A stretch of 10,500 bases of DNA from a virus (lineage: Duplodnaviria; Heunggongvirae; Uroviricota; Caudoviricetes). The stretch is from IMG/VR virus record IMGVR_UViG_2703718869_000008, positions 1 through 10,500 of that record; one strand, written 5' to 3'. Numbering within the stretch: position 1 is the stretch's first letter; every line of letters begins with the position of its first letter. The position numbers and the translations under genes were made by a program. Below the pieces are notes generated by a model, which was given only the letters and a program-made list of their open reading frames with translations, was not told the origin of the DNA and did no database searches. Shown here one piece after another: positions 1 to 10,500 of this stretch.

Positions 1-239
1 CGTCCATATTTCTTTCCCATCCAGGCGTTATCACCAACACGCTCAAGATGCGGAGGGTCGAATATAACCATCGAAAAAGATGCGTCTGCAAATGGTAGTG
101 CACGAAAATCAGCTATCAGATCAGGACTGATAATCAGGCGTCGTCCATCACACAATGTGTGCTCTTCCTTTCTGATATCGCTAAATATCGCCCGGTCGTC
201 ATTCTTATCGAACCAGAACATGCGACTGCCACAGCACAT
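1..239 (-). CDS. Putative SAM-dependent (DNA) methyltransferase, N-terminal fragment; ORF is open to the left window edge
   Basis: Hand translation of the minus strand from ATG (plus 237-239) gives MCCGSRMFWFDKNDDRAIFSDIRKEEHTLCDGRRLIISPDLIADFRALPFADASFSMVIFDPPHLERVGDNAWMGKKYG with no stop before position 1. The LP-x-x-S-x-x-x-VIFDPPH segment resembles motif IV (DPPY-type) of beta-class N6A/N4C methyltransferases. Absent from the ORF track because it has no stop in the window. Start is uncertain (ATG at 239 or 221; no strong RBS). Confidence 0.45.
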   Translation of the reverse strand, partial: MCCGSRMFWFDKNDDRAIFSDIRKEEHTLCDGRRLIISPDLIADFRALPFADASFSMVIFDPPHLERVGDNAWMGKKYG

Positions 240-262
240 GTCGAGGATTGCTGCATGTCCAG

Positions 263-613
263 TCACTGGCTGCCTCCTTTGCGAAGCCGTTCCGCCCATT
301 CTTCAAGGGATTTCTCTGCATATTCACCGGACAGGCCATCAATCGGATGCGATTCATTAGCTAACTCTTCTTTTGCTGACAGAATCATGCGTGTAACGTC
401 GAAAACTTCAGCCAAAGGCTTATTGATAAATCCGTGATTGAAAGCAGCAGCAAGACGGCTTGCGGTATAGTTAATACCCTCGTTGCGAGCCTCAGCACGT
501 ACTTCATCGAATTTACGCACCAGATACTCAGCATTTGTTTCATTCACTTTCAGATCTCGCGGTACACATTTCCCGCGAAGAAACCCTTCCATTTCGAAAA
601 CATTCATGCGCAT
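263..613 (-). CDS. Hypothetical protein, last gene of the leftward early cluster (positional equivalent of yfdS)
   Basis: 116-aa ORF whose start overlaps the stop of the upstream HD-domain gene by 10 nt, suggesting co-transcription and coupling. No recognisable motif. Confidence 0.6.
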   Translation of the reverse strand: MRMNVFEMEGFLRGKCVPRDLKVNETNAEYLVRKFDEVRAEARNEGINYTASRLAAAFNHGFINKPLAEVFDVTRMILSAKEELANESHPIDGLSGEYAEKSLEEWAERLRKGGSQ

Positions 614-1140
614 TTGTGTAACTCCGATAACTCGTTAAAACGTTCCATAAACATCCCGTAGGCATGGCTAGGTGCCAGTGGAATCACGTTGAACATCTCT
701 GTTGCCGGGATGCCTTCCAGTACAGGCCAGAAAGAGCCATCATCAAGCCCGAGATCGCGGCGTTCGGTTGCCAGCATGATAAGATCGGCATATTTCACGG
801 GCGTACTCATAACTGGGGGTAACCCGTATTTCTCACGGATTACGGCGTCAATTTTTTCTTCCATCCGTTTATAGTCAGGAAGAAGGCGTTTCAGTGGAGC
901 GGGGATGTCCTGGCAATACGCTTCTGTTGCATCATGCATTAATGCTTCAAAAGCAAATTCCTGCGGTACCAGCTGGCTGCAAAGAACCGCATGTTGGGCG
1001 ACGCTGTAGAAGTGCGAAAGATGACCGGCAAAGCGACAGATATTTGAAAGGGAAACCGCGATATCGTTAATATCGATGTCGTCTTTATTTATCCTGTCAT
1101 AATAAAAATGCTTCCCGGAAAAAGTTTTAATAAATGACAT
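604..1140 (-). CDS. yfdR: HD-domain metal-dependent phosphohydrolase (YfbR/YfdR-like 5'-nucleotidase family)
   Basis: Track ORF 604..1167 starts at GTG; the internal ATG at 1140 is preceded by GGAGAA-N5 and gives 178 aa (MSFIKTF...). H...HD motif (SVAQHAVL...LMHDATEAY) is typical of HD phosphohydrolases. Size and position after a 274-aa gene match the K-12 CPS-53 yfdQ-yfdR arrangement; the symbol is assigned from synteny and size, not from a search. Confidence 0.78.
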   Translation of the reverse strand: MSFIKTFSGKHFYYDRINKDDIDINDIAVSLSNICRFAGHLSHFYSVAQHAVLCSQLVPQEFAFEALMHDATEAYCQDIPAPLKRLLPDYKRMEEKIDAVIREKYGLPPVMSTPVKYADLIMLATERRDLGLDDGSFWPVLEGIPATEMFNVIPLAPSHAYGMFMERFNELSELHKCA

Positions 1141-1233
1141 TTTGTTCTCCACGTATATGCGCTGCACCGCGCTGAATTCTGGTAAAAAGAATCCCTCACC
1201 ATCCGGCGATTATTGAGTAAATTACGTTTCCAT

Positions 1234-1255
1234 AAATGCCCCCTCAGGGGCATTT
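1234..1255 (-). other. Perfect palindromic hairpin AAATGCCCC-CTCA-GGGGCATTT in the yfdQ-yfdR intergenic spacer (possible attenuator or RNA-processing/stability element)
   Basis: Seen directly: 9-bp perfect stem with 4-nt loop, 12 nt downstream of the yfdQ-like stop on the transcribed minus strand. No clean U-tract follows, so it is not called a terminator. Confidence 0.35.
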
Positions 1256-1267
1256 GCAGTAATGAAA

Positions 1268-2092
1268 TCAGGCGGTGAAAGTACCAATAAAGGTTTCTAC
1301 TTTGCTGTCCTTGAATTTCTCAACAAGCAGATCACGAAATTCGTTAGCCATTTCTTCCTGCACCGCCTCCAGCTGAATAATGCGCAGAACCAGTACCGGA
1401 CGATCGCCAGTGATAATGCTGAGGCGTAATTTAAACGGACGTTCTTTCAGACCTTCAAACGGAATGCATTTAAATTCAAATGCCACTGGCATAATGTCTT
1501 TGGTCTTCGCTTCGACAGACTCCATCAGGGAGCGTTTGCCGCTGAAGTCATTATCTTCAAAATCAGCGGTCTGGTTTGCTTCAATCGTGATTTTACGGAC
1601 CGCCGCAGCCGCTTTTGTTGCCTGAATGGTGTCACCATTAGCATCAAAGCCCACAAGGTAGTCGGCCCAGTCTTCAATCCATTCTGCCAGTGATTTCTGG
1701 GAGTTACGCTCGCCATTAACAGACAACAGAGCAGAGAACGGTGCTGTCTTTTTCAGTTTGAGAGTGGCGGTGTTATCTGCGTGACCTGGTTCATCAATAG
1801 TACCCAGGTTAAGCACACTGACGGCACGCATATTATCAGCATCAATAAAGCAGCGGGTGCCTTCATCTGCAAGATCTTTAGAATAACGGGTAAAGTCATC
1901 GATGCTGGCAGTGGAAAGAGCACCACGGAAACGGAAGCGATTTAAATTAAATTTTTCCAGATCATGAATGCGGAAATTCTCAGGCAATGCCACAGCATCG
2001 GCACCAATCTTACTGATAATTTCATTAACACCCTGAGCAGAAATAAGGGCATGGATTTGATTAATTGCGGTTGCGTCTAAGTTCTGAGACAT
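1268..2092 (-). CDS. yfdQ: YfdQ-like protein (DUF2303 family), function unknown
   Basis: 274-aa ORF, the same length as K-12 YfdQ, with GAGGA-N7-ATG RBS and the same order P-Q-R as the CPS-53 cluster. Family assignment is from memory and synteny, not a search. Confidence 0.75.
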
Positions 2093-2157
2093 AATAAGTC
2101 CTCACTATATAAGGATATTCAGTGATGAGATAAATAATCAGTTAATTAAGAACGATA

Positions 2158-2520
2158 TTAATGACCTGCTGCGCGGAGTTTTCCGTCAGGTTCACCGGCA
2201 AGAGTCAGTAATTGTCCCTGGTCTTCCTGCAGAATAGTCAGGCGACCACCGCGATTGACATACATCGGCGTTTCGGTGGTGTCTTCTTCGGAAATTTTCC
2301 CGCGGTTAGTCGGGCGAACATATGAGAGTTTGTGTTTGATTTTCACACGGTTCTCATCAAATGGTTCGATTTCCAGGTTGAGTGAGACCTTACCTTTGGT
2401 TTTCGTGTTCATCACACCTGAAGCGACTTCACTGAGAACTGCGCCGATTTTGGTTTCAAATACGCCGCCGTCCAGCTCCCCGATAAATGCCTGCACATCA
2501 GTACTGCGTTCGCTAGCCAT
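2158..2520 (-). CDS. yfdP: YfdP-like small early protein (120 aa), function unknown
   Basis: Track ORF 2158..2706 has an unlikely 62-codon N-terminal extension across the structured leader. The internal ATG at 2520 is preceded by GAGGAG-N7 and gives MASERSTDVQ..., 120 aa, matching K-12 YfdP size and position. Symbol is from synteny only. Confidence 0.65.
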   Translation of the reverse strand: MASERSTDVQAFIGELDGGVFETKIGAVLSEVASGVMNTKTKGKVSLNLEIEPFDENRVKIKHKLSYVRPTNRGKISEEDTTETPMYVNRGGRLTILQEDQGQLLTLAGEPDGKLRAAGH

Positions 2521-2568
2521 TTTGCTGCTCCTCATCATATCGACCCTGCAAGGTCGGTTGGTTTCTCC

Positions 2569-2657
2569 ACAAAACAGAGAAGAACACCTGCGGTGGCAGC
2601 CGCCCGGATGGATTGGGTTATGAGCCCGTCGTCCGGTGATGCTCTTCTCTGTTTTGT
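2569..2657 (-). repeat. Long-range perfect 15-bp inverted repeat (ACAAAACAGAGAAGA / TCTTCTCTGTTTTGT) with 59-nt spacer in the leader upstream of the yfdP-like gene
   Basis: Seen directly: arms at 2569-2583 and 2643-2657 are exact reverse complements. The spacer contains a further small GC stem (GCGG...CCGC). Confidence 0.6.
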
Positions 2658-2703
2658 AAAAAGAGCGGTACCAGCCGGAAGCAAGTGTACAAACTGGTAC
2701 CGC
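2656..2703 (-). terminator. Terminator-like hairpin (10-bp perfect stem GCGGTACCAG/CTGGTACCGC, 19-nt loop) followed on the minus strand by UCUUUUUAC
   Basis: Seen directly: plus 2665-2674 and 2694-2703 are exact reverse complements, and a T-tract follows in the minus-strand sense. The loop is long for a classical intrinsic terminator. It lies between the N-position HTH gene and the yfdP-like gene (tL1-like position). Confidence 0.4.
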
Positions 2704-2934
2704 CAAAGCAGTGGCTGTTGTGGTGACCGGTGCTGATCTCCGGCTTGCGGTTATTTCAGACTCTCACGGGCGTTTAATTACCCCGCCGAACAGCTCTTTT
2801 CCGCAATAGCTGCAATGTCTTTCGCGCATCAGCCTGCGCATTCACCACAACGCTAAGGATTCTCTCTGGTTGAAAATACTTAGCTGTTATGTGCCTGCTT
2901 TTAGCCACATCAGGCGAGGTGGTAGGTACGTGAG

Positions 2935-3303
2935 CTACTTGGTGGTATTTGCCTTCGATGAGGCAAGATAGGCATCAAGATCACTTTTTAGGTAAATAAC
3001 CTTTCTACCGATTTTTAAAAAAGGTATTCGAACTTTTCCTGTGCTAGCCCAATTAGCTAAGGTTTGCGCTTCTACGCCGATATAGGCTGCGGCGTCTTCT
3101 CTATTCATTTTTTCATGTTGTTCTGACAGAATACTCGTTGCTTCAAAATCAAAGCCCAGCTTTTCAAAGGCATAGATAATAGAGCCCAAAGCCATTTGTT
3201 TAACTGTTCTGTAGTTACTGCTTTCAACTTGGCTTAATGCAGTTTTTGCTGCTTCAATCACCACAAGCCAGGCATCTCGTTGGTTGTCGATACTGCCATC
3301 CAT
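2935..3303 (-). CDS. Helix-turn-helix DNA-binding protein (Xis/AlpA/MerR-like HTH in C-terminal half), first gene of the leftward early operon
   Basis: ATG at 3303 preceded by AGGAGA-N6 (track start GTG at 3309 abuts the RBS). C-terminal segment AAAYIGVEAQTLANWASTGKVRIPFLKIGRKVIYLKSDLDAYL resembles small excisionase-type HTH domains. Low-GC gene, unlike lambda N (not Arg-rich). Confidence 0.65.
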   Translation of the reverse strand: MDGSIDNQRDAWLVVIEAAKTALSQVESSNYRTVKQMALGSIIYAFEKLGFDFEATSILSEQHEKMNREDAAAYIGVEAQTLANWASTGKVRIPFLKIGRKVIYLKSDLDAYLASSKANTTK

Positions 3304-3361
3304 ATTCACTCTCCTGCCATGTGCGAATCATCCGGTCATTCATACGCCACCGTCGGCTACT

Positions 3362-3420
3362 TCGTGGGCGTCCTGCCTGTTCGTTATCTTTGATATAAAA
3401 TCTAACTTAACTTAGTTTTG
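3362..3420 (-). promoter_or_regulatory. Putative leftward early promoter/operator (pL/oL-like) with CTTAGTT-core operator-like palindromes
   Basis: AT-rich spacer between cI and the next leftward gene. Contains AACTTAGTT (3409-3417), sharing its core with palindromes in the cI-cro intergenic region; CTTAGTT recurs at 3446-3452. Promoter hexamers not confidently assigned. Confidence 0.4.
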
Positions 3421-3425
3421 ATGGC

Positions 3426-3462
3426 AAGAGAAAACACCAAACTTTTCTTAGTTCGGTGTTTT
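3426..3462 (-). terminator. Putative rho-independent terminator immediately downstream of cI (stem AAAACACCGAAC/GUUUGGUGUUUU with one G-U, 8-nt loop, U-rich 3' side)
   Basis: Seen directly: plus 3431-3442 and 3451-3462 are near-perfect reverse complements. On the minus-strand transcript the stem is followed by CUCUU. Lies 19 nt after the cI stop. Confidence 0.45.
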
Positions 3463-3480
3463 GGTTAGAGAAAAGGGGGG

Positions 3481-4107
3481 CTAGAGTTCGTATTGAACTC
3501 CTTTGACTACACCAATGATGAGGCAATTACCATTGATCGGGATGTTGGGGTACCGGGGATTTAATGGCACTAAAAACTTTTGAGGGCCATCGATAACTAA
3601 TTTTTTTACTGTGGCTTCGTTTGTTCCATCAAGTCTAGCGATGACTATTTTTCCATGCCGGGGTTCTGCATCAGGATCTACAATCACTGTTGCGCCTTCT
3701 GGTATTGTTGGGAGGCCGTTAGGGTTAGTCATGGAGTCGCCTTTAACCTCCAATGCAAATGAGTTATCACCAATCTTTAATGATGTATCTACCCACTTGT
3801 CTACTTCACTAAACACTTCTGCTGTCCTGCACTCAGTAAACTGCCCAGCCTGAACCCACGAGATTACAGGAACTCTGCGCATGTTTGTGACGAGTTTGCC
3901 TTCAAACTCCGCACCATAAAGAATGTAATCTATTGACGTATTGAAGAACTTCGCTAATTTTGAAAGTGCTTCCCCTCCAGGGACATTGATGTCTTTCTCC
4001 CAGTACCCCACAGCAACGTCACTTACTCCACAAAATTTACCCAATTCTTTCTGGGACGTTCTGGTAACTCTTCTCAGAGCTTTTATACGCTGACCAACCG
4101 TTTCCAT
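3481..4107 (-). CDS. cI: Phage CI-type repressor (N-terminal XRE-family HTH plus C-terminal S24 LexA-like autopeptidase domain)
   Basis: 208 aa. N-terminal HTH (QKELGKFCGVSDVAVGYWE), GDSM serine motif and downstream KK lysine motif typical of RecA-stimulated self-cleaving repressors. Divergent from a cro-like gene. Confidence 0.9.
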   Translation of the reverse strand: METVGQRIKALRRVTRTSQKELGKFCGVSDVAVGYWEKDINVPGGEALSKLAKFFNTSIDYILYGAEFEGKLVTNMRRVPVISWVQAGQFTECRTAEVFSEVDKWVDTSLKIGDNSFALEVKGDSMTNPNGLPTIPEGATVIVDPDAEPRHGKIVIARLDGTNEATVKKLVIDGPQKFLVPLNPRYPNIPINGNCLIIGVVKGVQYEL

Positions 4108-4204
4108 AGGAGCACCATTTCTTTAATTACTAAGTAATCTTAGTTTTTATTGACCTAAGATAGATTGATAATTAACATCTAATAAAACTTAGTTTGGAGG
4201 GCAT
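4108..4204. promoter_or_regulatory. Divergent immunity promoter/operator region (pRM/pR-like) with repeated near-palindromes ATTACTAAGTAAT and AAACTTAGTTT
   Basis: 97-bp AT-rich spacer between divergent cI and cro-like starts. Palindromes at 4126-4138 and 4185-4195 plus CTTAG/CTAAG at 4139-4143 and 4154-4158. Candidate pR: TTGACC (4150-4155), 17-nt spacer, TAACAT (4173-4178). GGAGG RBS 4 nt before the cro ATG. Confidence 0.6.
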
Positions 4205-4405
4205 ATGACGACTGACGATATCGAAAGCTACTTCGGCAGCATTGAGAAAGTTGCTGCTTTTTTCGGCATAACAACTGAAGCCGTTTATCAGTGGCGAAAC
4301 CGTCCTGGCCAGTTAATTCCAAAAGGACGTGCAGCAGAGGCTGCATATAGAACTTGCGGACGGTTGCCATTTAAACCTGAGCTTTATGAAAAATCTAATG
4401 GATAA
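4205..4405 (+). CDS. cro: Cro-like small HTH regulator (Cro/YdaS-type)
   Basis: 66-aa ORF divergent from cI, GGAGG RBS, central HTH-like segment (VAAFFGITTEAVYQWRNR). Position and size match cro. Symbol is positional/functional, not a lambda Cro sequence match. Confidence 0.75.
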   Translation: MTTDDIESYFGSIEKVAAFFGITTEAVYQWRNRPGQLIPKGRAAEAAYRTCGRLPFKPELYEKSNG

Positions 4406-4442
4406 ATCGATTTACAGAAACCACAGATATGAGGGCTTAAAC

Positions 4443-5027
4443 GTGGGTAAAGAACCTGAATGGAAAGTTGATAAGCAACCAGCATGGCTGGTGGCAGCAA
4501 TACGAAGAACGATTGCTGATTTACCTCATGGCTATGAGGAAGCAGCAGAAATTCTTGGTTTGTATAAATCTGATGATATCACCCCAGCAAAAGATCAATT
4601 GCATAACAGACTGCGTAGCGGTGGGGATCAAATTTTTCCACTTGAGTGGGCCATGGTTTTACAGGATGCCAGTGGTACCAGGCATGTAACGGATGCAATA
4701 GCCCGTCGTAGTAATGGGGTGTTTGTGCCGCTGGTGGTCATTGATGACATTGACAATGGTGACATTAATCAGCGGCTGATGGAGTCAATAGAATGGATTG
4801 GCAAGCATTCCCAGTACTTACGCAAGGCAACTGCTGATGGAGTTATTGACCAAGCTGAGCGTGAGCAAATCGAAGAGAACAGCTACCAAGTAATGGCGAA
4901 GTGGCAGGAGCATTTAACACTGTTATTTCGTGTTTTTTGTGCGCCGGAAAAGAGTAACGCCCGCGAGTGTGCAGCTCCGGGCGTCGTGGCGTCGATTGCT
5001 TCTGGTTGTGGAGAAACTAACGCATGA
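4443..5027 (+). CDS. Hypothetical early regulator in the cII position (possibly CII/YdaT-like); start uncertain
   Basis: Track ORF 4329..5027 overlaps cro in another frame. In-frame GTG at 4443 is preceded by GAGGG-N7; alternatives are ATG 4386 or 4398 without a good RBS. Stop overlaps the next start (ATGA). Function inferred only from position. Confidence 0.55.
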   Translation: MGKEPEWKVDKQPAWLVAAIRRTIADLPHGYEEAAEILGLYKSDDITPAKDQLHNRLRSGGDQIFPLEWAMVLQDASGTRHVTDAIARRSNGVFVPLVVIDDIDNGDINQRLMESIEWIGKHSQYLRKATADGVIDQAEREQIEENSYQVMAKWQEHLTLLFRVFCAPEKSNARECAAPGVVASIASGCGETNA

Positions 5028-5860
5028 ACAGTTTAACGGCAAATAACCGTTTGTCGCAACAGCTGGTGTTCAGTGTCGCTGAACACCTGTTGTTACGGCA
5101 TGAATGCAGATTACCAAATCACCTGGCTGTAAGTAACCACAGAGAACTTTACCTGACTGTGGGGGGCGAGTTGTGCTGGAACTTAACCGCTGGTTTCGTG
5201 ACGGAAGAGGGCTTTATGTCCATGTTATTCGTTGGGAGCCAGAAACACAGCGCGTTATCTATCTTCGCAAAGACTACCCGCATGAGTGCTTTAGTCCTTT
5301 GTGGAAATTCAGGCGTGATTTTGTTGAGTGTGAAGGACCACCAGCACATTGATTCTGCCATTCCGGGACGTTACACTGTTCAGGCACCTTATAAAGCGGG
5401 TGTCGGGATTGGCGTCCTGGAATTGCATACGGCGACAATTGGCGCGTTAGCGTCTTTTTTGTTGCTACAACTCAGCTATACCCAAATTATGGTGGGCTGG
5501 GTGGGGGCACCGAAAGGTGCGCCGGTTTCCGTATGCGCCGGTTACGCCAACCCTGCTCAGTTCACCACCAGCGAAATTGGCGTTTCCGGTGGTGGAAGTT
5601 ATCCATTGCATACGGAGGCTGCCATCATGGCTACTGTCCCAGCCCTCTCTCGTCTGAATGATGAAGACTTACATAAACTCAGTTATGTAACAACTGCACT
5701 ACGTGCTCTGCGCAAGGTAACTCTTTCGGATCCGCAGGCGCATCAGGTTTTGGTAGAAACCCTTCTTAACTTGCAGGCTGAACGTATTCGTCTGGCGGAT
5801 AAGGCTAATTTTCATATTCACCGTCTCCTGAATATCAGCGGAGGGCATCGTCATGCTTAA
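5024..5860 (+). CDS. Hypothetical protein (278 aa), unknown function
   Basis: Long stop-free frame; ATGA overlap with the upstream gene and ATGCTTAA overlap with the downstream gene. C-terminal 75 aa look clearly protein-like, but the middle is compositionally odd and an alternative frame is also open (see findings). Confidence 0.5.
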   Translation: MNSLTANNRLSQQLVFSVAEHLLLRHECRLPNHLAVSNHRELYLTVGGELCWNLTAGFVTEEGFMSMLFVGSQKHSALSIFAKTTRMSALVLCGNSGVILLSVKDHQHIDSAIPGRYTVQAPYKAGVGIGVLELHTATIGALASFLLLQLSYTQIMVGWVGAPKGAPVSVCAGYANPAQFTTSEIGVSGGGSYPLHTEAAIMATVPALSRLNDEDLHKLSYVTTALRALRKVTLSDPQAHQVLVETLLNLQAERIRLADKANFHIHRLLNISGGHRHA

Positions 5861-6089
5861 TCCGTTGATCCTCAATATTTGCCGTTTGCTTCAGCGTAAA
5901 AAAACATCAATTCCTACAGTTGGGCAGTGGTACACCACGCCTGCAGGGCATGTTCTACGTGTCAGCCTGGTTGACCGTGAATGTCAGAAGGTGATTTGTG
6001 AACCGCTGGGCCGTAATTACCGCGTCAGTATGCCGCTTATAGCCTTTCGCTCCGGAAAAAACATGAAGCATCTCGGAGGTGCAGCATGA
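5853..6089 (+). CDS. Hypothetical small protein (78 aa)
   Basis: GGAGGG-N7-ATG RBS and translational coupling on both sides (overlaps upstream stop; ATGA overlap with the initiator gene). Confidence 0.6.
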   Translation: MLNPLILNICRLLQRKKTSIPTVGQWYTTPAGHVLRVSLVDRECQKVICEPLGRNYRVSMPLIAFRSGKNMKHLGGAA

Positions 6090-6904
6090 GTATGGAGCTG
6101 ATGGTTAAAGCGATGAAAATTCGAGTGGGTAATCCATTGCGAAAACTGGTTCTGATCAAGCTGGCTGATAATGCCAGCGATCAGGGTGAGTGCTGGCCCA
6201 GCTACCAGCATATTGCTGACCAGTGCGAGATTAGCAAACGTTCTGTGATGAATCATATTGCGGCCCTTTGTGATTCCGGGCTGGTAAAAAAAGTCACCCG
6301 GAAAGGTGAAAAAGGTAACTCAAGTAATATCTATCTCCTTCATCTTGATGGTGCAGGAGATTCACTAGGGGGTAGTGCAAATAATTCACTATCTAGTGCA
6401 GCAAATTCACCAGGTAGTGCAGGAGTTGCACCAGGGGGTGGTGCAGGAGATTCACCCAGAACCAGTCACTCTTTTGAACCAGTCAAAGAACCAGTCAATG
6501 AACCAATAGCTGTTGGTGCATCTGCTGATGAGTCCGTGCGAGTTCGTTCAAACCGACCGGAATACTCTCCGGAGTTTGAGCAGGCATGGCTGGCATACCC
6601 CAAACGTGCTGGTGGCAATTCAAAATCTGCAGCCTTCAAAGCCTGGAAAGCTCGTTTGAATGAGGGGGTAAAACCCGAAACCATGCTGGAAGGTGTGAAA
6701 CGCTACGCGGGCTGGGTATCTGCGATGGGTAACAGCGGCACACAATTTGTGAAACAGGCTGTCACGTTCTTTGGTCCGGATCGTCATTTCGAAGAATCCT
6801 GGGAAGTTCCTGCGGTATCTGCAGCCAGACGCGAGGACCCGTACTTCAAAGCCAGTTACGACAACGTGGACTACAGCCAGATCCCGGCAGGATTCAGGGG
6901 GTGA
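6086..6904 (+). CDS. Phage replication initiator (lambda O-like organisation: N-terminal HTH, internal iteron-encoded Gly/Ser/Ala linker, C-terminal domain)
   Basis: GGAGG-N7-ATG. N-terminal HTH segment (LVLIKLADNASDQGECWPSYQHIADQCEISKRSVMNHIAALCDSGLV) typical of phage replication initiators. The middle of the gene carries tandem iterons, as in lambda O. Not the lambda O sequence itself. Confidence 0.72.
   Translation: MSMELMVKAMKIRVGNPLRKLVLIKLADNASDQGECWPSYQHIADQCEISKRSVMNHIAALCDSGLVKKVTRKGEKGNSSNIYLLHLDGAGDSLGGSANNSLSSAANSPGSAGVAPGGGAGDSPRTSHSFEPVKEPVNEPIAVGASADESVRVRSNRPEYSPEFEQAWLAYPKRAGGNSKSAAFKAWKARLNEGVKPETMLEGVKRYAGWVSAMGNSGTQFVKQAVTFFGPDRHFEESWEVPAVSAARREDPYFKASYDNVDYSQIPAGFRG
6347..6506 (+). 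repeat. Putative replication origin: five 15-bp iterons GTGCA-N5-T(T/G)CAC at 21-24 bp spacing, then three to four GAACCAGTCA repeats
   Basis: Seen directly: iterons start at 6351, 6375, 6396, 6417 and 6441 (first and fifth identical: GTGCAGGAGATTCAC). GAACCAGTCA occurs at 6459, 6476 and 6488 with a degenerate copy at 6500. Located inside the initiator gene, analogous to ori-lambda within O. Confidence 0.55.
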
Positions 6905-6906
6905 TC

Positions 6907-7395
6907 ATGAGTCTTTTGAATGAAGTTCAGAAATTCATTGAAGCCCATCCGGGGTGTACTTCCGGAGACATTGCGGATGCTTTTGCAGGTTACTCACGGC
7001 AGCGCGTTCTGCAGTCAGCAAGCAAGTTACGTCAGAGTGGGCGTGTGGCTCACCGTTGTGAAGGAGATACACGCAGACATTTCCCGCGCCTGACTGAGAG
7101 AGCGCAGGAACCGGAACCACAACCAGTTCGAGAAACCAGACCTGTGCGCAATTTCTATGTCGGCACTAACGATCCACGGGTGATTTTGTGCCTGACCCGC
7201 CAGGCTGAAGAACTGGAGTCCAGGGGCTTATACCGTCGTGCTGCAACCGTGTGGATGGCGGCATTCCGTGAAAGCCACTCCCAGCCAGAACAAAACAATT
7301 TTCTGGCGCGTCGTGAGCGGTGCTTACGGAAAAGCAGCAAGCGCGCTGCATCGGGTGAAGAGTGGTATCTGTCAGGGAATTACGTGGGGGCTTAA
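6907..7395 (+). CDS. Putative PerC/Pch-family transcriptional regulator with extra N-terminal domain
   Basis: GGGGG-N5-ATG at 6907 (track start GTG 6901 overlaps the upstream stop). C-terminal AEELESRGLYRRAATVWMAAF resembles the PerC signature (LE-x-GL-W/Y-RRAA-x-W) as recalled. Stop overlaps the next start (TAATG). Family assignment is tentative. Confidence 0.5.
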   Translation: MSLLNEVQKFIEAHPGCTSGDIADAFAGYSRQRVLQSASKLRQSGRVAHRCEGDTRRHFPRLTERAQEPEPQPVRETRPVRNFYVGTNDPRVILCLTRQAEELESRGLYRRAATVWMAAFRESHSQPEQNNFLARRERCLRKSSKRAASGEEWYLSGNYVGA

Positions 7396-8048
7396 TGAGT
7401 AATAAATATTGCCAGGCGCTGGTGGAACTGCGGAACAAACCAGCCCATGAACTGAAGGAAGTGGGCGATCAGTGGCGCACGCCGGACAACATTTTCTGGG
7501 GAATTAACACCCTGTTTGGCCCGTTTGTTCTGGATCTGTTTACTGACGGTGATAACGCCAAATGTGCCGCGTATTACACGGCGGAAGATAACGCGCTGGC
7601 GCATGACTGGTCAGAACGTCTTGCGGAGCTTAAAGGTGCTGCCTTTGGTAATCCCCCATACAGCCGCGCCAGTCAGCATGAGGGGAAATACATCACTGGC
7701 ATGCGTTACATCATGAAGCATGCCAGTGCCATGCGTGATAAAGGCGGGCGCTATGTTTTCCTGATCAAAGCTGCCACCAGCGAAGTGTGGTGGCCGGAAG
7801 ATGCAGATCATATTACTTTTATTCGCGGGCGTATTGGTTTTGAACTGCCTGTCTGGTTTATCCCGAAAGACGAGAAGCAGGTACCGACAGGAGCTTTTTT
7901 CGCTGGTGCTATTGCTGTTTTTGACAAGACCTGGAAGGGACCGGCAATCAGCTACATTGGGCGCGATGAACTTGAGGCATGTGGTGAGGCGTTTCTGGCG
8001 CAGGTTCGCCAGCAGGCGGAAAAACTGGTCAGGGAGATGGCTGCATGA
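7395..8048 (+). CDS. Phage-type DNA N6-adenine methyltransferase (Dam family), orphan
   Basis: GGGGG-N4-ATG at 7395 (track ORF starts upstream at 7362 in the same frame). Motifs WRTPD, FVLDLFTD and catalytic NPPYS are characteristic of the phage Dam family. No adjacent restriction endonuclease gene. Confidence 0.85.
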   Translation: MSNKYCQALVELRNKPAHELKEVGDQWRTPDNIFWGINTLFGPFVLDLFTDGDNAKCAAYYTAEDNALAHDWSERLAELKGAAFGNPPYSRASQHEGKYITGMRYIMKHASAMRDKGGRYVFLIKAATSEVWWPEDADHITFIRGRIGFELPVWFIPKDEKQVPTGAFFAGAIAVFDKTWKGPAISYIGRDELEACGEAFLAQVRQQAEKLVREMAA

Positions 8049-8371
8049 CGACATTAACTCAATGCCAGCAGCAGGTGCTGGATATGCTGATTTCTTATCA
8101 GAAAGAGCGTGGCTTTCCGCCAACCAATCAGGAGGTGGCAACCATGCTGGGATACCGTTCAGTGAATGCAGCGGTAGAGCATCTTCGCGCACTGGAGAAA
8201 AAAGGCGTCATCACGATAAAGCGTGGCGTGGCCCGGGGGATAACGCTTCATACCGCGGTGAAGGACGACGACAGCGAGGCGGTCGGGATTATCCACTCAC
8301 TGCTTGCCGGTGAGGAAAACGCAAGGCTGCGTGCAACCCACTGGTTACATGAGAGGGGCCTGAAAGTATGA
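8045..8371 (+). CDS. LexA N-terminal DNA-binding-domain homolog lacking the S24 peptidase/cleavage domain
   Basis: 108 aa. N-terminal ~70 aa align closely with E. coli LexA residues 1-70 as recalled (MTTLTQCQQQVLDMLISYQKERGFPPTNQEVATMLGYRSVNAAVEHLRALEKKGVI vs [56 protein letters not shown]). Recognition-helix residues NAA-EHL are conserved; there is no Ala-Gly cleavage site or Ser/Lys dyad. ATGA overlaps on both sides. Confidence 0.8.
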   Translation: MTTLTQCQQQVLDMLISYQKERGFPPTNQEVATMLGYRSVNAAVEHLRALEKKGVITIKRGVARGITLHTAVKDDDSEAVGIIHSLLAGEENARLRATHWLHERGLKV

Positions 8372-8763
8372 AGCTGATCCTGCCTTTTCCGCCCAGCGTG
8401 AACACGTACTGGCGACACCCCAACAAAGGGGCGTTTGCTGGTAAGAGCCTGATAAGCGCGGCGGGGCGCAAATTCCAGAGCGCGGCGTGTGCAGCAATAG
8501 TTGAGCAGTTACGTCGTCTGCCAAAACCAACGTCGGCACCTGCATCAGTGGAGATCGTGTTGTTTCCTCCGGATAACCGGATCCGCGATCTGGACAACTA
8601 TAACAAGGCGCTGTTTGACGCCCTGACCCACGCGGGTGTGTGGGAAGACGACAGTCAGGTGAAAAGAATGCTGGTGGAGTGGGGACCGGTTATCCCGGAA
8701 GGGAAGGTCGAGATCACTATCAGTAAGTACGAAAAAGCGAGTTGCAAATTAGCAACTCGGTAA
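8368..8763 (+). CDS. rusA: RusA-family Holliday junction resolvase
   Basis: 131 aa. N-terminal LPFPPSVNTYWRH and central DLDNYNKALFDALTHAGVWEDDSQV match the RusA pattern (PWPPS-N-YYR, DLDN-K---DALT-AG-W-DD-QV). Typical nin-region position. Confidence 0.88.
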   Translation: MKLILPFPPSVNTYWRHPNKGAFAGKSLISAAGRKFQSAACAAIVEQLRRLPKPTSAPASVEIVLFPPDNRIRDLDNYNKALFDALTHAGVWEDDSQVKRMLVEWGPVIPEGKVEITISKYEKASCKLATR

Positions 8764-8808
8764 CGGAATTGAGCAACACCCTAAATTTGGGTATTACCTC
8801 GTTAAAGA

Positions 8809-8828
8809 TACTGTATTTATGAACAGTG
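8809..8828 (+). promoter_or_regulatory. Canonical LexA (SOS) box TACTGTATTTATGAACAGTG upstream of the KilA-N gene
   Basis: Seen directly: CTGT-N8-ACAG with AT-rich spacer, close to consensus TACTGTATATATATACAGTA. Lies about 87 nt upstream of the KilA-N start in an AT-rich intergenic region that presumably holds its promoter. Confidence 0.6.
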
Positions 8829-8914
8829 TATCCTTGATAACTATTAAAAATCGCAGTAAGTTCATCTTGCATCAACGAAAAGGGAGTGCAGTCCCGAAAT
8901 TTGTGGAGAAACCA

Positions 8915-9730
8915 ATGAATCAGTTGCTTGTAATTGATGGCGTTTCTGTGCGCCAGTACTTTGAATCTAACTACTGTCTTAACGACCTTCAGAAAGCTGC
9001 TCTTCTTGCCGCTGGTGAGAATCGCTCCTCCCGTTCGCTGGAAGTTCACGAGTTTATGCGTCGTCCTGAAACGAAGGCTCTTGTGGAATTACTGGAAGAA
9101 GAAACTACGGGAGATTCCCGTAGTATTCCTGTCATCACCATTCAGGGGCGCAATGGTGGGACGTATGTCTGTAAAGAGCTGGTCTATGCATATGCAATGT
9201 GGATCAGCCCGGCATTCAGCTTAAAAGTGATACGTACTTTTGATGCGCTTCATAATTCATCACCAGAAGAAACCACATCCGACAAAATTAAATCCGGGGT
9301 CATTCTGCTTGAATCAGCAGCAAAGACTCTAAATCTGTCAAACTCCTCGAAACTTGGTGCATACCAGAAATTATCAAAGGTAGCTGGTCTTCCTGAACTT
9401 ATGCCGATCTATGCCATTGATGCACCTGCTGATGCGCCAGATGGTTCAAGCCGCCCTACGCTGTCGCTGAGTGCACTGCTGAAGCAGTATGGTATCCGCC
9501 TGACGGCTAATCAGGCATATCACCAGATGGTGAAGCTGGGGATCGTCGAGCAGCGCGAACGATACAGCCGTACCGGGATTAACAACATCAAAAAATTCTG
9601 GTCGCTGACGGCGAAAGGCTGCATGTTCGGCAAGAACATCACCAGTCCCGCAAATCCGCGCGAGACGCAGCCGCATTTCTTCGAATCCCGATTCCCTGAG
9701 CTGTTAAAGCTGCTCGATACCGTTCATTGA
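8915..9730 (+). CDS. KilA-N domain protein (candidate SOS-inducible antirepressor or Kil-like factor)
   Basis: ATG at 8915 with GGAGAA-N5 (track start 8819 lies inside the SOS box and is unlikely). N-terminal region (VSVRQYFESNYCLNDLQKAA...GRNGGTYVCKELVYAYAMWISPAFSLKVIRTFDAL) fits the KilA-N pattern. Gene is lower in GC than its neighbours (moron-like). Confidence 0.75.
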   Translation: MNQLLVIDGVSVRQYFESNYCLNDLQKAALLAAGENRSSRSLEVHEFMRRPETKALVELLEEETTGDSRSIPVITIQGRNGGTYVCKELVYAYAMWISPAFSLKVIRTFDALHNSSPEETTSDKIKSGVILLESAAKTLNLSNSSKLGAYQKLSKVAGLPELMPIYAIDAPADAPDGSSRPTLSLSALLKQYGIRLTANQAYHQMVKLGIVEQRERYSRTGINNIKKFWSLTAKGCMFGKNITSPANPRETQPHFFESRFPELLKLLDTVH

Positions 9731-9737
9731 GGTGACC

Positions 9738-10500
9738 GTGAGAGCACTACTGACCCCTGAAATTGCCCCGCGTATGGGGATCGTATTGTTCAGGCCAGGT
9801 TCAGAGCTGATGCCCCTGTTTATGCAGGGGCGTGTCCTGCTGGAGCCTGAGCCGGAACGTTATTCATCTTTCGCTAGTGGTGCCGTTCCGGCGGCATCAC
9901 AACCGCTGGCGGATGATCCTTCCGTTCGGGCCGTGTTCCGCAATGAGGCAGTGATCCGTCGTGCTGGTGGCGTGGAATGTCTTGAAAGCTGGTTACTTCG
10001 TGAAAAAGGCTGCCAGTGGCTTCATTCCGACTGGCACAGCGAGAACATGACCACAATGCGACACGCTCCGGGTGCAATCCGTCTGTGCTGGCACTGCGAT
10101 AACCAGCTGCGCGATCAGTTCACGGAACGGCTGGAATCAATGGCAACGGATAACTGTGCCCGCTGGGTGTTGTCTGTTGTGCGTCGGGATCTCGGTTTTG
10201 ATGACAGTCACGTTGTGACAATGCCGGAACTGTGCTGGTGGCTGATTCGTAATGACCTGGCGGATGCCTTACCGGAAAGTGCAGCCCGTAAGGCACTGAG
10301 ATTACCGAAGCCTGTTGTGCCGTCTGTCACCCGGGAAAGTGACCTTGTGCCTTCGGTTCCTGCCACCAGCATCATCCAGGATAAAGCGAAAAAGGTGCTG
10401 GCGCTGAAAGTGGATCCGGAGTCGCCGGAGTCTTTTATGTTACGCACCAAACGTCGCCGCTGGGTTAATGAAAAGTACACGCGCTGGGTTAAGACGCAGC
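9738..10500 (+). CDS. Cys/His-rich hypothetical protein, partial (possibly DUF968-like); ORF continues past the right window edge
   Basis: Hand translation from GTG 9738 (GAGGT-N4-GTG) is stop-free to the window end: VRALLTPEIAPRMGIV...CQWLHSDWH...CWHCDNQ...MLRTKRRRWVNEKYTRWVKTQ. Absent from the ORF track because it has no stop. DUF968 assignment is from memory of a similar RRRW-x-NEKYT-x-WV segment; low certainty. Confidence 0.5.
   Translation, partial: MRALLTPEIAPRMGIVLFRPGSELMPLFMQGRVLLEPEPERYSSFASGAVPAASQPLADDPSVRAVFRNEAVIRRAGGVECLESWLLREKGCQWLHSDWHSENMTTMRHAPGAIRLCWHCDNQLRDQFTERLESMATDNCARWVLSVVRRDLGFDDSHVVTMPELCWWLIRNDLADALPESAARKALRLPKPVVPSVTRESDLVPSVPATSIIQDKAKKVLALKVDPESPESFMLRTKRRRWVNEKYTRWVKTQ

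Follow-up and report, generated by a model that had tools for sequence, protein, structure and literature searches.

In the early region of a lambdoid prophage, a short spacer between the Holliday junction resolvase gene rusA and a gene for a KilA-N domain protein contains a palindrome that closely resembles the operators of the SOS repressor LexA. The window considered here is the whole stretch of DNA that was analyzed, 10,500 nucleotides representing positions 1 to 10,500 of the IMG/VR record IMGVR_UViG_2703718869_000008. Its genes are arranged in the order cI, cro, ymfL-like, a replication gene, PerC-like, Dam methylase, a truncated lexA, rusA, kilA-N, and DUF968/HNH-like. The spacer, which an initial annotation had described as AT-rich and noncoding, is indeed both: it extends for 151 nt (8764-8914) from rusA (8368-8763, + strand; Pfam RusA) to kilA-N (8915-9730, + strand; 271 amino acids (aa)), with a GC content of 0.377. 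Within it lie the candidate SOS box (8809-8828, a palindrome to which no strand is assigned), a predicted σ70 promoter designated P(kilA) (8834-8862, + strand), and a leader stem-loop (8872-8907, + strand). The DUF968/HNH-like gene (9738-10500, + strand; Pfam DUF968) begins 7 nt after kilA-N and runs off the window.

The 20-mer that the initial annotation had singled out as an SOS box, TACTGTATTTATGAACAGTG, was confirmed at 8809-8828; its CTGT occupies 8811-8814 and its ACAG 8823-8826. Its AT-rich spacer and its layout, a 16-bp CTGT-N8-ACAG core within a 20-bp palindrome, are those of an Escherichia coli-type operator. The window contains two copies of CTGT-N8-ACAG compared with 0.16 expected; the other copy, at 5127, lies within an open reading frame (ORF) and has a spacer that is not AT (it contains GC). 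The quality of the site was assessed by heterology index (HI), with a matrix derived from 18 E. coli SOS boxes in the literature (PMC3009722, Table 4). On this index the box scores 7.8 in the forward direction, 5.6 in reverse, and 6.6 with a symmetrized matrix, and the runner-up site in the window scores 13.0. As the 18 known boxes, scored by leave-one-out, have a median of 6.9 and a range of 0.6-12.8, the LexA-matrix scoring that had been suggested as a check places this site (5.6-7.8) within the range of known operators. Functional LexA sites reportedly fall below about 12.6-15 on the same index. In Salmonella, SOS genes with clear LexA dependence have a mean HI of ~6.3 (PMC8072944).

The site is also rare. 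An equally good one arose in only one of 2000 Markov shuffles of the window (P ~0.0005 per window, or ~0.05%) and in none of 20000 shuffles at the composition of the spacer itself. In the matching E. coli prophage (E2863), the box is the sole strong site in 24 kb, and in the 39.8-kb genome of phage SfIV it is the sole site with an HI <13. The SfIV allele ends ...CAGTA and scores 5.0; E. coli alleles vary at position 20, where G or A gives an HI of 6.6 or 5.0, respectively.

Five base pairs beyond the end of the box begins the best candidate promoter of the spacer. P(kilA) is composed of a -35 hexamer TTGATA (8834-8839), 17 intervening bases, and a -10 hexamer TAAGTT (8857-8862), with a start predicted near 8869, relative to which the box is centered at about -50.5. 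This placement, upstream of the -35 element instead of over the promoter, had been overlooked in the initial annotation. The position weight matrix (PWM) score of P(kilA), 10.7, is the highest in the spacer and the fourth highest on the + strand of the window, and the promoter falls under the 9/12 threshold of a simple promoter scan. Comparison with relatives, meaning here homologues of the N-terminal KilA-N domain from other genera, adds detail to this prediction. In an alignment of nine diverged spacers (A2), three positions (T8857, A8858, and T8862) do not vary and TTGAnn is retained; as read from the alignment, an invariant T, A, and final T 17 bases after TTGAnn is the signature of a σ70 -10 element. 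The conserved islands of A2 are the TTGAnn motif, the T-A-x-x-x-T hexamer, and a stem-loop with a GUGCAG or UUGCAG loop. In 10 of 20 other relatives, 60-66 nt separate the end of the -10 element of the best promoter from the ATG, a distance that an 11-nt deletion reduces to 53 nt in the window.

Other arrangements of promoter and box were considered and rejected. Two promoters overlapping the box, TTGGGT-N16-TACTGT and TGAACA-N16-TATTAA, score poorly and show no conservation, and a leftward promoter with its -10 element in the box is weak and has a 19-nt spacer. A weak second LexA-like site, AACTATTAAAAATCGCAGTA (8839-8858, no strand assigned; HI 14.8 forward and 17.6 symmetrized), falls within the spacer of P(kilA). 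As a cooperative partner of the box it was discarded for its marginal score and its absence from relatives, and it is probably not significant.

The most conserved element of the spacer is the leader hairpin, not the box. RNA folding gives an inner hairpin, GGGA-GUGCAG-UCCC (8882-8895), whose stem pairs 8882-8885 with 8892-8895 around the GUGCAG loop, enclosed by an outer stem. The motif TGCAG is found 28-50 nt before the ATG in 22 of 22 loci examined, with arms that differ yet stay complementary, and compensatory changes occur at all 4 pairs of the stem. The hairpin is present even in the SfV/Stx2 type of locus, which has no box and where it overlaps the rusA stop codon. A search of the spacer against Rfam, leader hairpin included, gave no match. 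A similar hairpin, CGACC-TTGCAG-GGTCG, occurs at 2546-2562 on the - strand, just upstream of a yfdP-like gene. The 15-mer TTGTGGAGAAACCAA recurs as well, at 2558-2572 (-), 5006-5020 (+), and 8901-8915 (+), one copy having a single mismatch, compared with 0.04 occurrences expected; two of the copies lead directly into an ATGAAT start, and the element is probably a shared translation-initiation or module-boundary sequence.

Translation of kilA-N is assigned to the ATG at 8915, preceded by a GGAG Shine-Dalgarno sequence (8906-8917 for the two together, + strand), as in the PGAP and SfIV annotations. A longer ORF of 303 aa, starting from an ATG at 8819 within the box, was rejected: in the SfIV allele an 11-bp indel disrupts its frame, and PGAP and GenBank both use the ATG at 8915. 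Farther downstream, the gap from kilA-N to DUF968 is 7 nt and that from DUF968 to the antiterminator gene Q is 13 nt; gaps of only 1-17 nt separate the three genes in the matching E. coli prophage and in SfIV, and the distance from DUF968 to Q is 13-64 nt where annotated (L085, SfIV, and L086-L093). No strong terminator was found on the + strand up to the end of Q. Many relatives from other genera keep the order rusA, spacer, kilA-N, DUF968, with Q next wherever the retrieved DNA extends that far.

The quality and rarity of the site, the conservation of the promoter -35 and -10 elements and of the hairpin, the recurrence of LexA-like sites in relatives, and the tight spacing of kilA-N, DUF968, and Q together suggest that TACTGTATTTATGAACAGTG is most likely a host LexA operator on an internal prophage promoter driving kilA-N, DUF968, and probably Q, a reading to which we give about an even chance. 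In a lysogen, LexA centered ~50 bp upstream of the start and abutting the -35 element would hold P(kilA) down, and RecA-stimulated cleavage of LexA upon DNA damage would free it. The resulting transcript would begin with the leader hairpin and continue through kilA-N and DUF968/HNH to the Q gene beyond the window, and the KilA-N protein, probably with extra Q, would be made on the SOS signal before cleavage of cI and early-right transcription. DNA damage would in this way probably turn on a DNA-binding phage gene, and perhaps Q, independently of the phage repressor. We infer that LexA occupies the site in vivo, that it represses from an upstream position, and that transcription reads through into Q.

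Orthologous spacers in other prophages bear on this reading in both directions. When the 120-nt spacers of 21 loci were each compared with dinucleotide-preserving shuffles, the LexA-like site was found to beat 95% of shuffles in 14 spacers and 99% in 10, although these loci are related rather than independent and the P values are inflated as a result. The enrichment backs the LexA-operator interpretation offered in the initial annotation, making it plausible from comparative sequence evidence. The placement of the sites varies. Sites centered at -50.5 are found, in addition to the window and SfIV (HI 6.6 and 5.0), in L035 (14.5), L090 (14.2), L087 (16.5), and L020 (15.1); those of L035, L087, and L090 stand at the same conserved promoter as in the window, and A2 aligns the element of L091 (16.1) with these, although the best promoter of that locus by PWM is another one. 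In L038 (HI 8.5), L006 (12.1), and L037 (15.5), the site lies instead over the -10 element, centered at -7.5, and in L032 (7.2), L030 (15.3), and L088 (17.4) it is at about -20. Such differing placements at one promoter can be argued to mean that LexA control was selected more than once.

Besides the inflated P values, a number of points weigh against the proposal. Many of the sites in relatives are weak; those of Kluyvera (L087), Kosakonia (L091), and Leclercia (L090) have GTG rather than CTG in the left half, with HI values of 14-16.5, and in Citrobacter (L086), in L093, and in Pantoea (L089) no LexA-like site aligns with the box of the window. In the nearest cross-genus relatives, moreover, the counterpart of the right half is the region of the rusA stop codon, from which it follows that the perfect box could be recent and lineage-specific; judged by its sequence distribution, it may be confined to the E. 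coli/Shigella cassette described below. The promoter itself is a prediction from sequence, with a weak -10 element that matches the consensus at 3 of 6 positions. Chromosomal SOS boxes of E. coli typically overlap the -35 element, the -10 element, or the start. The box overlaps none of these, and a center near -50 is unusual for repression by LexA; in Salmonella, boxes distant from the start go with LexA-independent behavior (PMC8072944). A promoter under LexA alone that feeds Q would risk lysis at sub-inducing levels of damage, which speaks either for some further control or against read-through. Finally, a literature search returned neither binding nor expression results for the locus.

Some of these points would suit the view that the box has no regulatory role, being a by-product of the recombination that gave rise to the cassette; LexA might bind there while changing nothing that matters from -50. 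The box is outside the core promoter, its right half has coding-sequence homologues in L087 and L091, the closest cross-genus relatives have a degenerate box or none, and the E. coli and Shigella copies are 96-100% identical, which leaves conservation within the species, including footprinting attempted on these copies, uninformative. This view is nevertheless an unlikely one: a 20-mer so near the consensus would very rarely arise by chance, several lineages have LexA-like sites at this promoter, in several positions, and both E. coli alleles (G or A at position 20) score well. A different possibility arises from a gene that the initial annotation had overlooked, 440 bp upstream of the box and in the same operon. 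It encodes a truncated LexA of 108 aa consisting only of the DNA-binding domain (8045-8371, + strand; Pfam LexA_DNA_bind, E 3e-19, spanning residues 1-65, with no S24 match), which aligns without gaps to residues 2-69 of E. coli LexA. The recognition helix reads RSVNAAVEHL compared with RSPNAAEEHL in E. coli LexA, and the residues Ser39, Asn41, Ala42, and Glu45, which we take to be the base-contacting ones, are kept. The box might then be read mainly, or also, by the phage protein, which by analogy could activate P(kilA) toward Q in the manner of gp6 of phage GIL01 or could re-repress it in uncleavable form, closing P(kilA) and the SOS genes of the host once more when LexA is gone. Binding immediately upstream of a -35 element is seen more typically with activators than with repressors, and GIL01 gp6 provides a precedent in activating the promoter P3 from a palindrome at -43.5 (PMC6182141). 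Of the five other loci whose site is at -50.5, four also have a truncated lexA gene (L035, L087, L090, and L091; none was found near L020), and none lies within 1.5 kb in L005, L006, L037, and L038, where the site is over the -10 element or a similar palindrome is present. These co-occurrence numbers are, however, very small; most carriers of the gene (SfV, SfII, mEp460, and Stx2a/c phages) have no box or promoter before kilA-N, and those among the relatives mostly have degenerate boxes. Nor is there visible covariation between recognition-helix residues and box half-sites. The N-terminal domain of LexA alone binds DNA poorly without dimerization, a step that in the phage protein would fall to a tail of 38 residues, and GIL01 gp6 does not bind canonical LexA boxes. 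A role of the truncated protein at the box is thus rather improbable. In a variant of the same idea, the box would be shared by the cleavable host LexA and the uncleavable phage protein in a "two-LexA" timer like that of GIL01, now in a lambdoid coliphage: host LexA would silence the promoter of kilA-N, DUF968, and Q in the lysogen, and the paralogue made from the early operon would then occupy the site and either raise the expression of Q or shut down once more both the promoter and the SOS regulon of the host. This extension by analogy has a small chance of being correct.

The initial annotation had raised another function, that of a LexA-controlled antirepressor by which the KilA-N protein would act on cI to open a second SOS route to induction; the repressors of co-resident prophages would be alternative targets in such a model. 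The good LexA box ahead of kilA-N is in keeping with this, as are the location of the unit outside the immunity region, as in the Gifsy phages, 186, and N15 (PMC3121763), the occurrence of KilA-N domains in proteins loosely annotated as antirepressors, and the example of Fels-1 FsoA, which acts on other prophages although its phage has a cleavable repressor. The protein itself gives a different impression. Its KilA-N domain is well supported (PF04383, E 1.6e-15, 57.3 bits compared with a gathering cut-off of 23.8), and its C-terminal half is winged-helix-like. Pfam reveals KilA-N alone and NCBIfam gives no match at all, with neither AntA/ANT nor any other domain in the two; the PHROG assignment is phrog_129, "transcriptional regulator," and 2728 database homologues are named solely "KilA-N domain-containing." Comparison with Tum, AntC, GfoA/GftA, and P22 Ant-type domains showed no similarity, and no sequence or profile likeness to characterized antirepressor families was found. 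An AF2 model (pLDDT 78) predicts two DNA-binding-type domains, one KilA-N/APSES-like and one, at the C terminus, winged-helix-like; a fold search of the full-length model against the PDB returned nothing significant, the weak matches being winged-helix DNA-binding proteins and Mbp1, and the viral matches in BFVD are KilA-N proteins. Moreover, proteins identical over their first 133 residues are found alongside three unrelated repressors, namely the cI of the window, that of SfIV/PhiR49_1, and an XRE-type repressor of an O104:H4 prophage, which speaks indirectly against a cognate pairing of KilA-N protein and repressor. The cI-type repressor of the window (3481-4107, - strand; Pfam HTH_3 and Peptidase_S24) aligns with the C-terminal domain of lambda cI at its autocleavage motifs, VQAG at the cleavage site, GDSM with the serine, and KKL with the lysine, so that its description as self-cleaving was reasonable; the SfIV-type cI likewise keeps these motifs, and with both repressors cleavable no antirepressor is needed there. 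Those LexA-controlled antirepressors that have been characterized act on repressors that are not cleavable, and the ones of Gifsy and 186 are small and unrelated to the KilA-N protein; orthologues of kilA-N are mostly plain early-operon genes without a box. An antirepressor function is on these grounds highly unlikely, and the two SOS-linked induction inputs proposed with it are, as stated, unsupported on the same evidence. Nothing here points to a trans role on other prophages of the FsoA kind. We infer instead that the KilA-N protein regulates lytic development by binding DNA.

The box, promoter, and leader belong to a mosaic cassette of 418 bp (8740-9157, + strand) that comprises a new rusA tail, the spacer, and codons 1-81 of kilA-N. 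In blastn comparison with Stx2a_1447, homology ends at 8739 and restarts at 9158, and the cassette is not found in SfV/Stx2a-type relatives. A module of methylase, truncated lexA, rusA, kilA-N, DUF968, and Q is common to SfV, SfII, mEp460, and the Stx2a and Stx2c phages; in SfV, SfII, mEp460, and the Stx2 phages kilA-N begins 19 bp after rusA with no box, and in most relatives the orthologous kilA-N is an ordinary gene of the early-right operon. The last rusA codons retain a 30-bp relic of the displaced allele (8732-8761, + strand), 90% identical to a stretch inside kilA-N of Stx2a_1447 (L002, 2424-2453), which by its sequence marks a recombination junction. The relic includes a palindrome, GAGTTGCAAATTAGCAACTC (8740-8759), that forms a strong hairpin (z = -3.2); as an insulating terminator of the Gifsy type it was rejected because it has no U tract on the + strand. 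On the evidence of these alignments, the 5' end of a KilA-N gene resident in the nin region has given way to a low-GC segment that brought along its own upstream region. The lower GC content noted for this gene in the initial annotation is borne out (0.459 over the first 125 codons compared with 0.55 in its neighbors). The label "moron-like" suits the locus in its low GC content and predicted promoter but not in other respects, as there is no terminator and what the segment displaced is part of a gene, its 5' end, that relatives already have at this position.

Among phage records, the cassette occurs in only five, which represent SfIV, PhiR49_1, and their duplicates. Among 5426 complete E. coli genomes it occurs in 187 (~3.4%), including O104:H4, O111, and S88, with 96-100% identity. 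In the O104:H4 genome FDAARGOS_349 (L099), from the 2011 outbreak lineage, it resides in a non-Stx lambdoid prophage that also has an XRE-type repressor, a Rha-family gene, tRNA genes, and a late-region SASA-family esterase gene. A link to Shiga toxin was discounted given this location of the O104:H4 copy.

Elsewhere in the window, Rfam matches to isrK (5384-5460, + strand; 58.9 bits, E 7.6e-11) and to C4 antisense RNA (5485-5572, + strand; 80.7 bits, E 5e-15, together with a weak match to the c4 a1/b1 target) occur between the ymfL-like gene and the replication gene. By sequence, the segment 5371-5572 (+ strand) looks like an RNA switch of the P1 immI or Gifsy IsrK kind, and the 278-aa ORF that spans these matches (5024-5860) is probably not a gene. 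In the SfV record, putative -35 and -10 elements are annotated ahead of dam (29523-29549). Should that promoter be genuine, a lysogen could express dam and the truncated lexA without pR, and the interpretation of the box would be different. The truncated lexA is conserved beside rusA in SfV, SfII, mEp460, Stx2 phages, and many prophages of Enterobacterales, and no functional study of it in coliphages was found in the literature search.

Prophage genes under the control of host LexA are already well known; this example is not described in the literature searched, which yielded nothing specific on the box, on KilA-N proteins and the SOS response, on PhiR49_1, or on truncated LexA in coliphages. 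A box on a conserved promoter upstream of an operon that ends in Q implies that damage might reach the late genes while bypassing cI and early transcription. The Shigella serotype-converting phage SfIV carries the cassette as well, and the same module encodes a truncated LexA that is widespread in SfV-like and Stx2 phages. The locus also corrects the assumption that a KilA-N gene with an SOS box specifies an antirepressor.

Comparison with known systems places the locus in context. The box shares CTGT-N8-ACAG, an AT-rich spacer, and its HI range with the operators of recA, sulA, umuDC, and uvrB, and differs from the chromosomal boxes in ending 5 bp before the -35 element. Within the phage group that has the truncated-lexA/rusA/kilA-N module, strong boxes are found at other, non-essential genes. 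In SfV (34170-34189) and mEp460, the box TACTGTAAAAATAAACAGTG falls among the opening codons of a gene, located downstream of Q, for a DNA methylase, and mEp460 has in addition two strong SOS boxes upstream of a dinI homologue and one, with an HI of 3.3, inside its repressor gene (41021, 23255, 23283, and 31970 being the coordinates of the boxes in that genome). Unlike the box of the window, these serve different genes, and that of the methylase lies inside the coding sequence; they too are known from sequence alone.

Closest in layout is the LexA-controlled nin-region unit dinI-antirepressor-irsA of Gifsy-1, -2, and -3 (Lemire et al. 2011, PMC3121763). There, as in the window, a lambdoid prophage has a LexA box at an internal unit downstream of the replication genes and outside the immunity region, with a palindrome before the unit. 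In the Gifsy phages, however, the repressors are short and uncleaved, the unit encodes DinI and a small antirepressor, and putative -35 and -10 elements are shown together with the LexA-matching box just ahead of the dinI start codon (PMC3121763), whereas the window has a cleavable cI, a 271-aa KilA-N protein unrelated to GfoA/GftA, a box upstream of the -35 element, and a palindrome without a U tract. The same distinction applies to LexA-controlled antirepressor modules at large (186 Tum, N15 AntC, and Gifsy GfoA/GftA), in which the repressor is non-cleavable, while the cI of the window is cleavable by its motifs.

The truncated LexA invites comparison with GIL01, in which gp6, a truncated LexA homologue, activates the late promoter P3 and host LexA represses it (Fornelos et al. 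2018, PMC6182141). Both phages have a LexA homologue consisting only of the DNA-binding domain, and a palindrome just upstream of or over the -35 element of a promoter for late functions; in GIL01 that promoter region is also a place of action of host LexA, as is proposed, from sequence, for the window. GIL01 differs as a Bacillus tectivirus without a cI of its own, and its gp6 recognizes a non-SOS palindrome at -43.5 while LexA, with gp7, acts on separate downstream boxes (PMC6182141). The window has a single canonical SOS box at about -50, and its truncated LexA is a coliphage protein known only as a predicted product. Seen beside these systems, the locus is plausibly a prophage accessory unit under LexA, of a known kind, to which the truncated LexA and the downstream Q add a twist.

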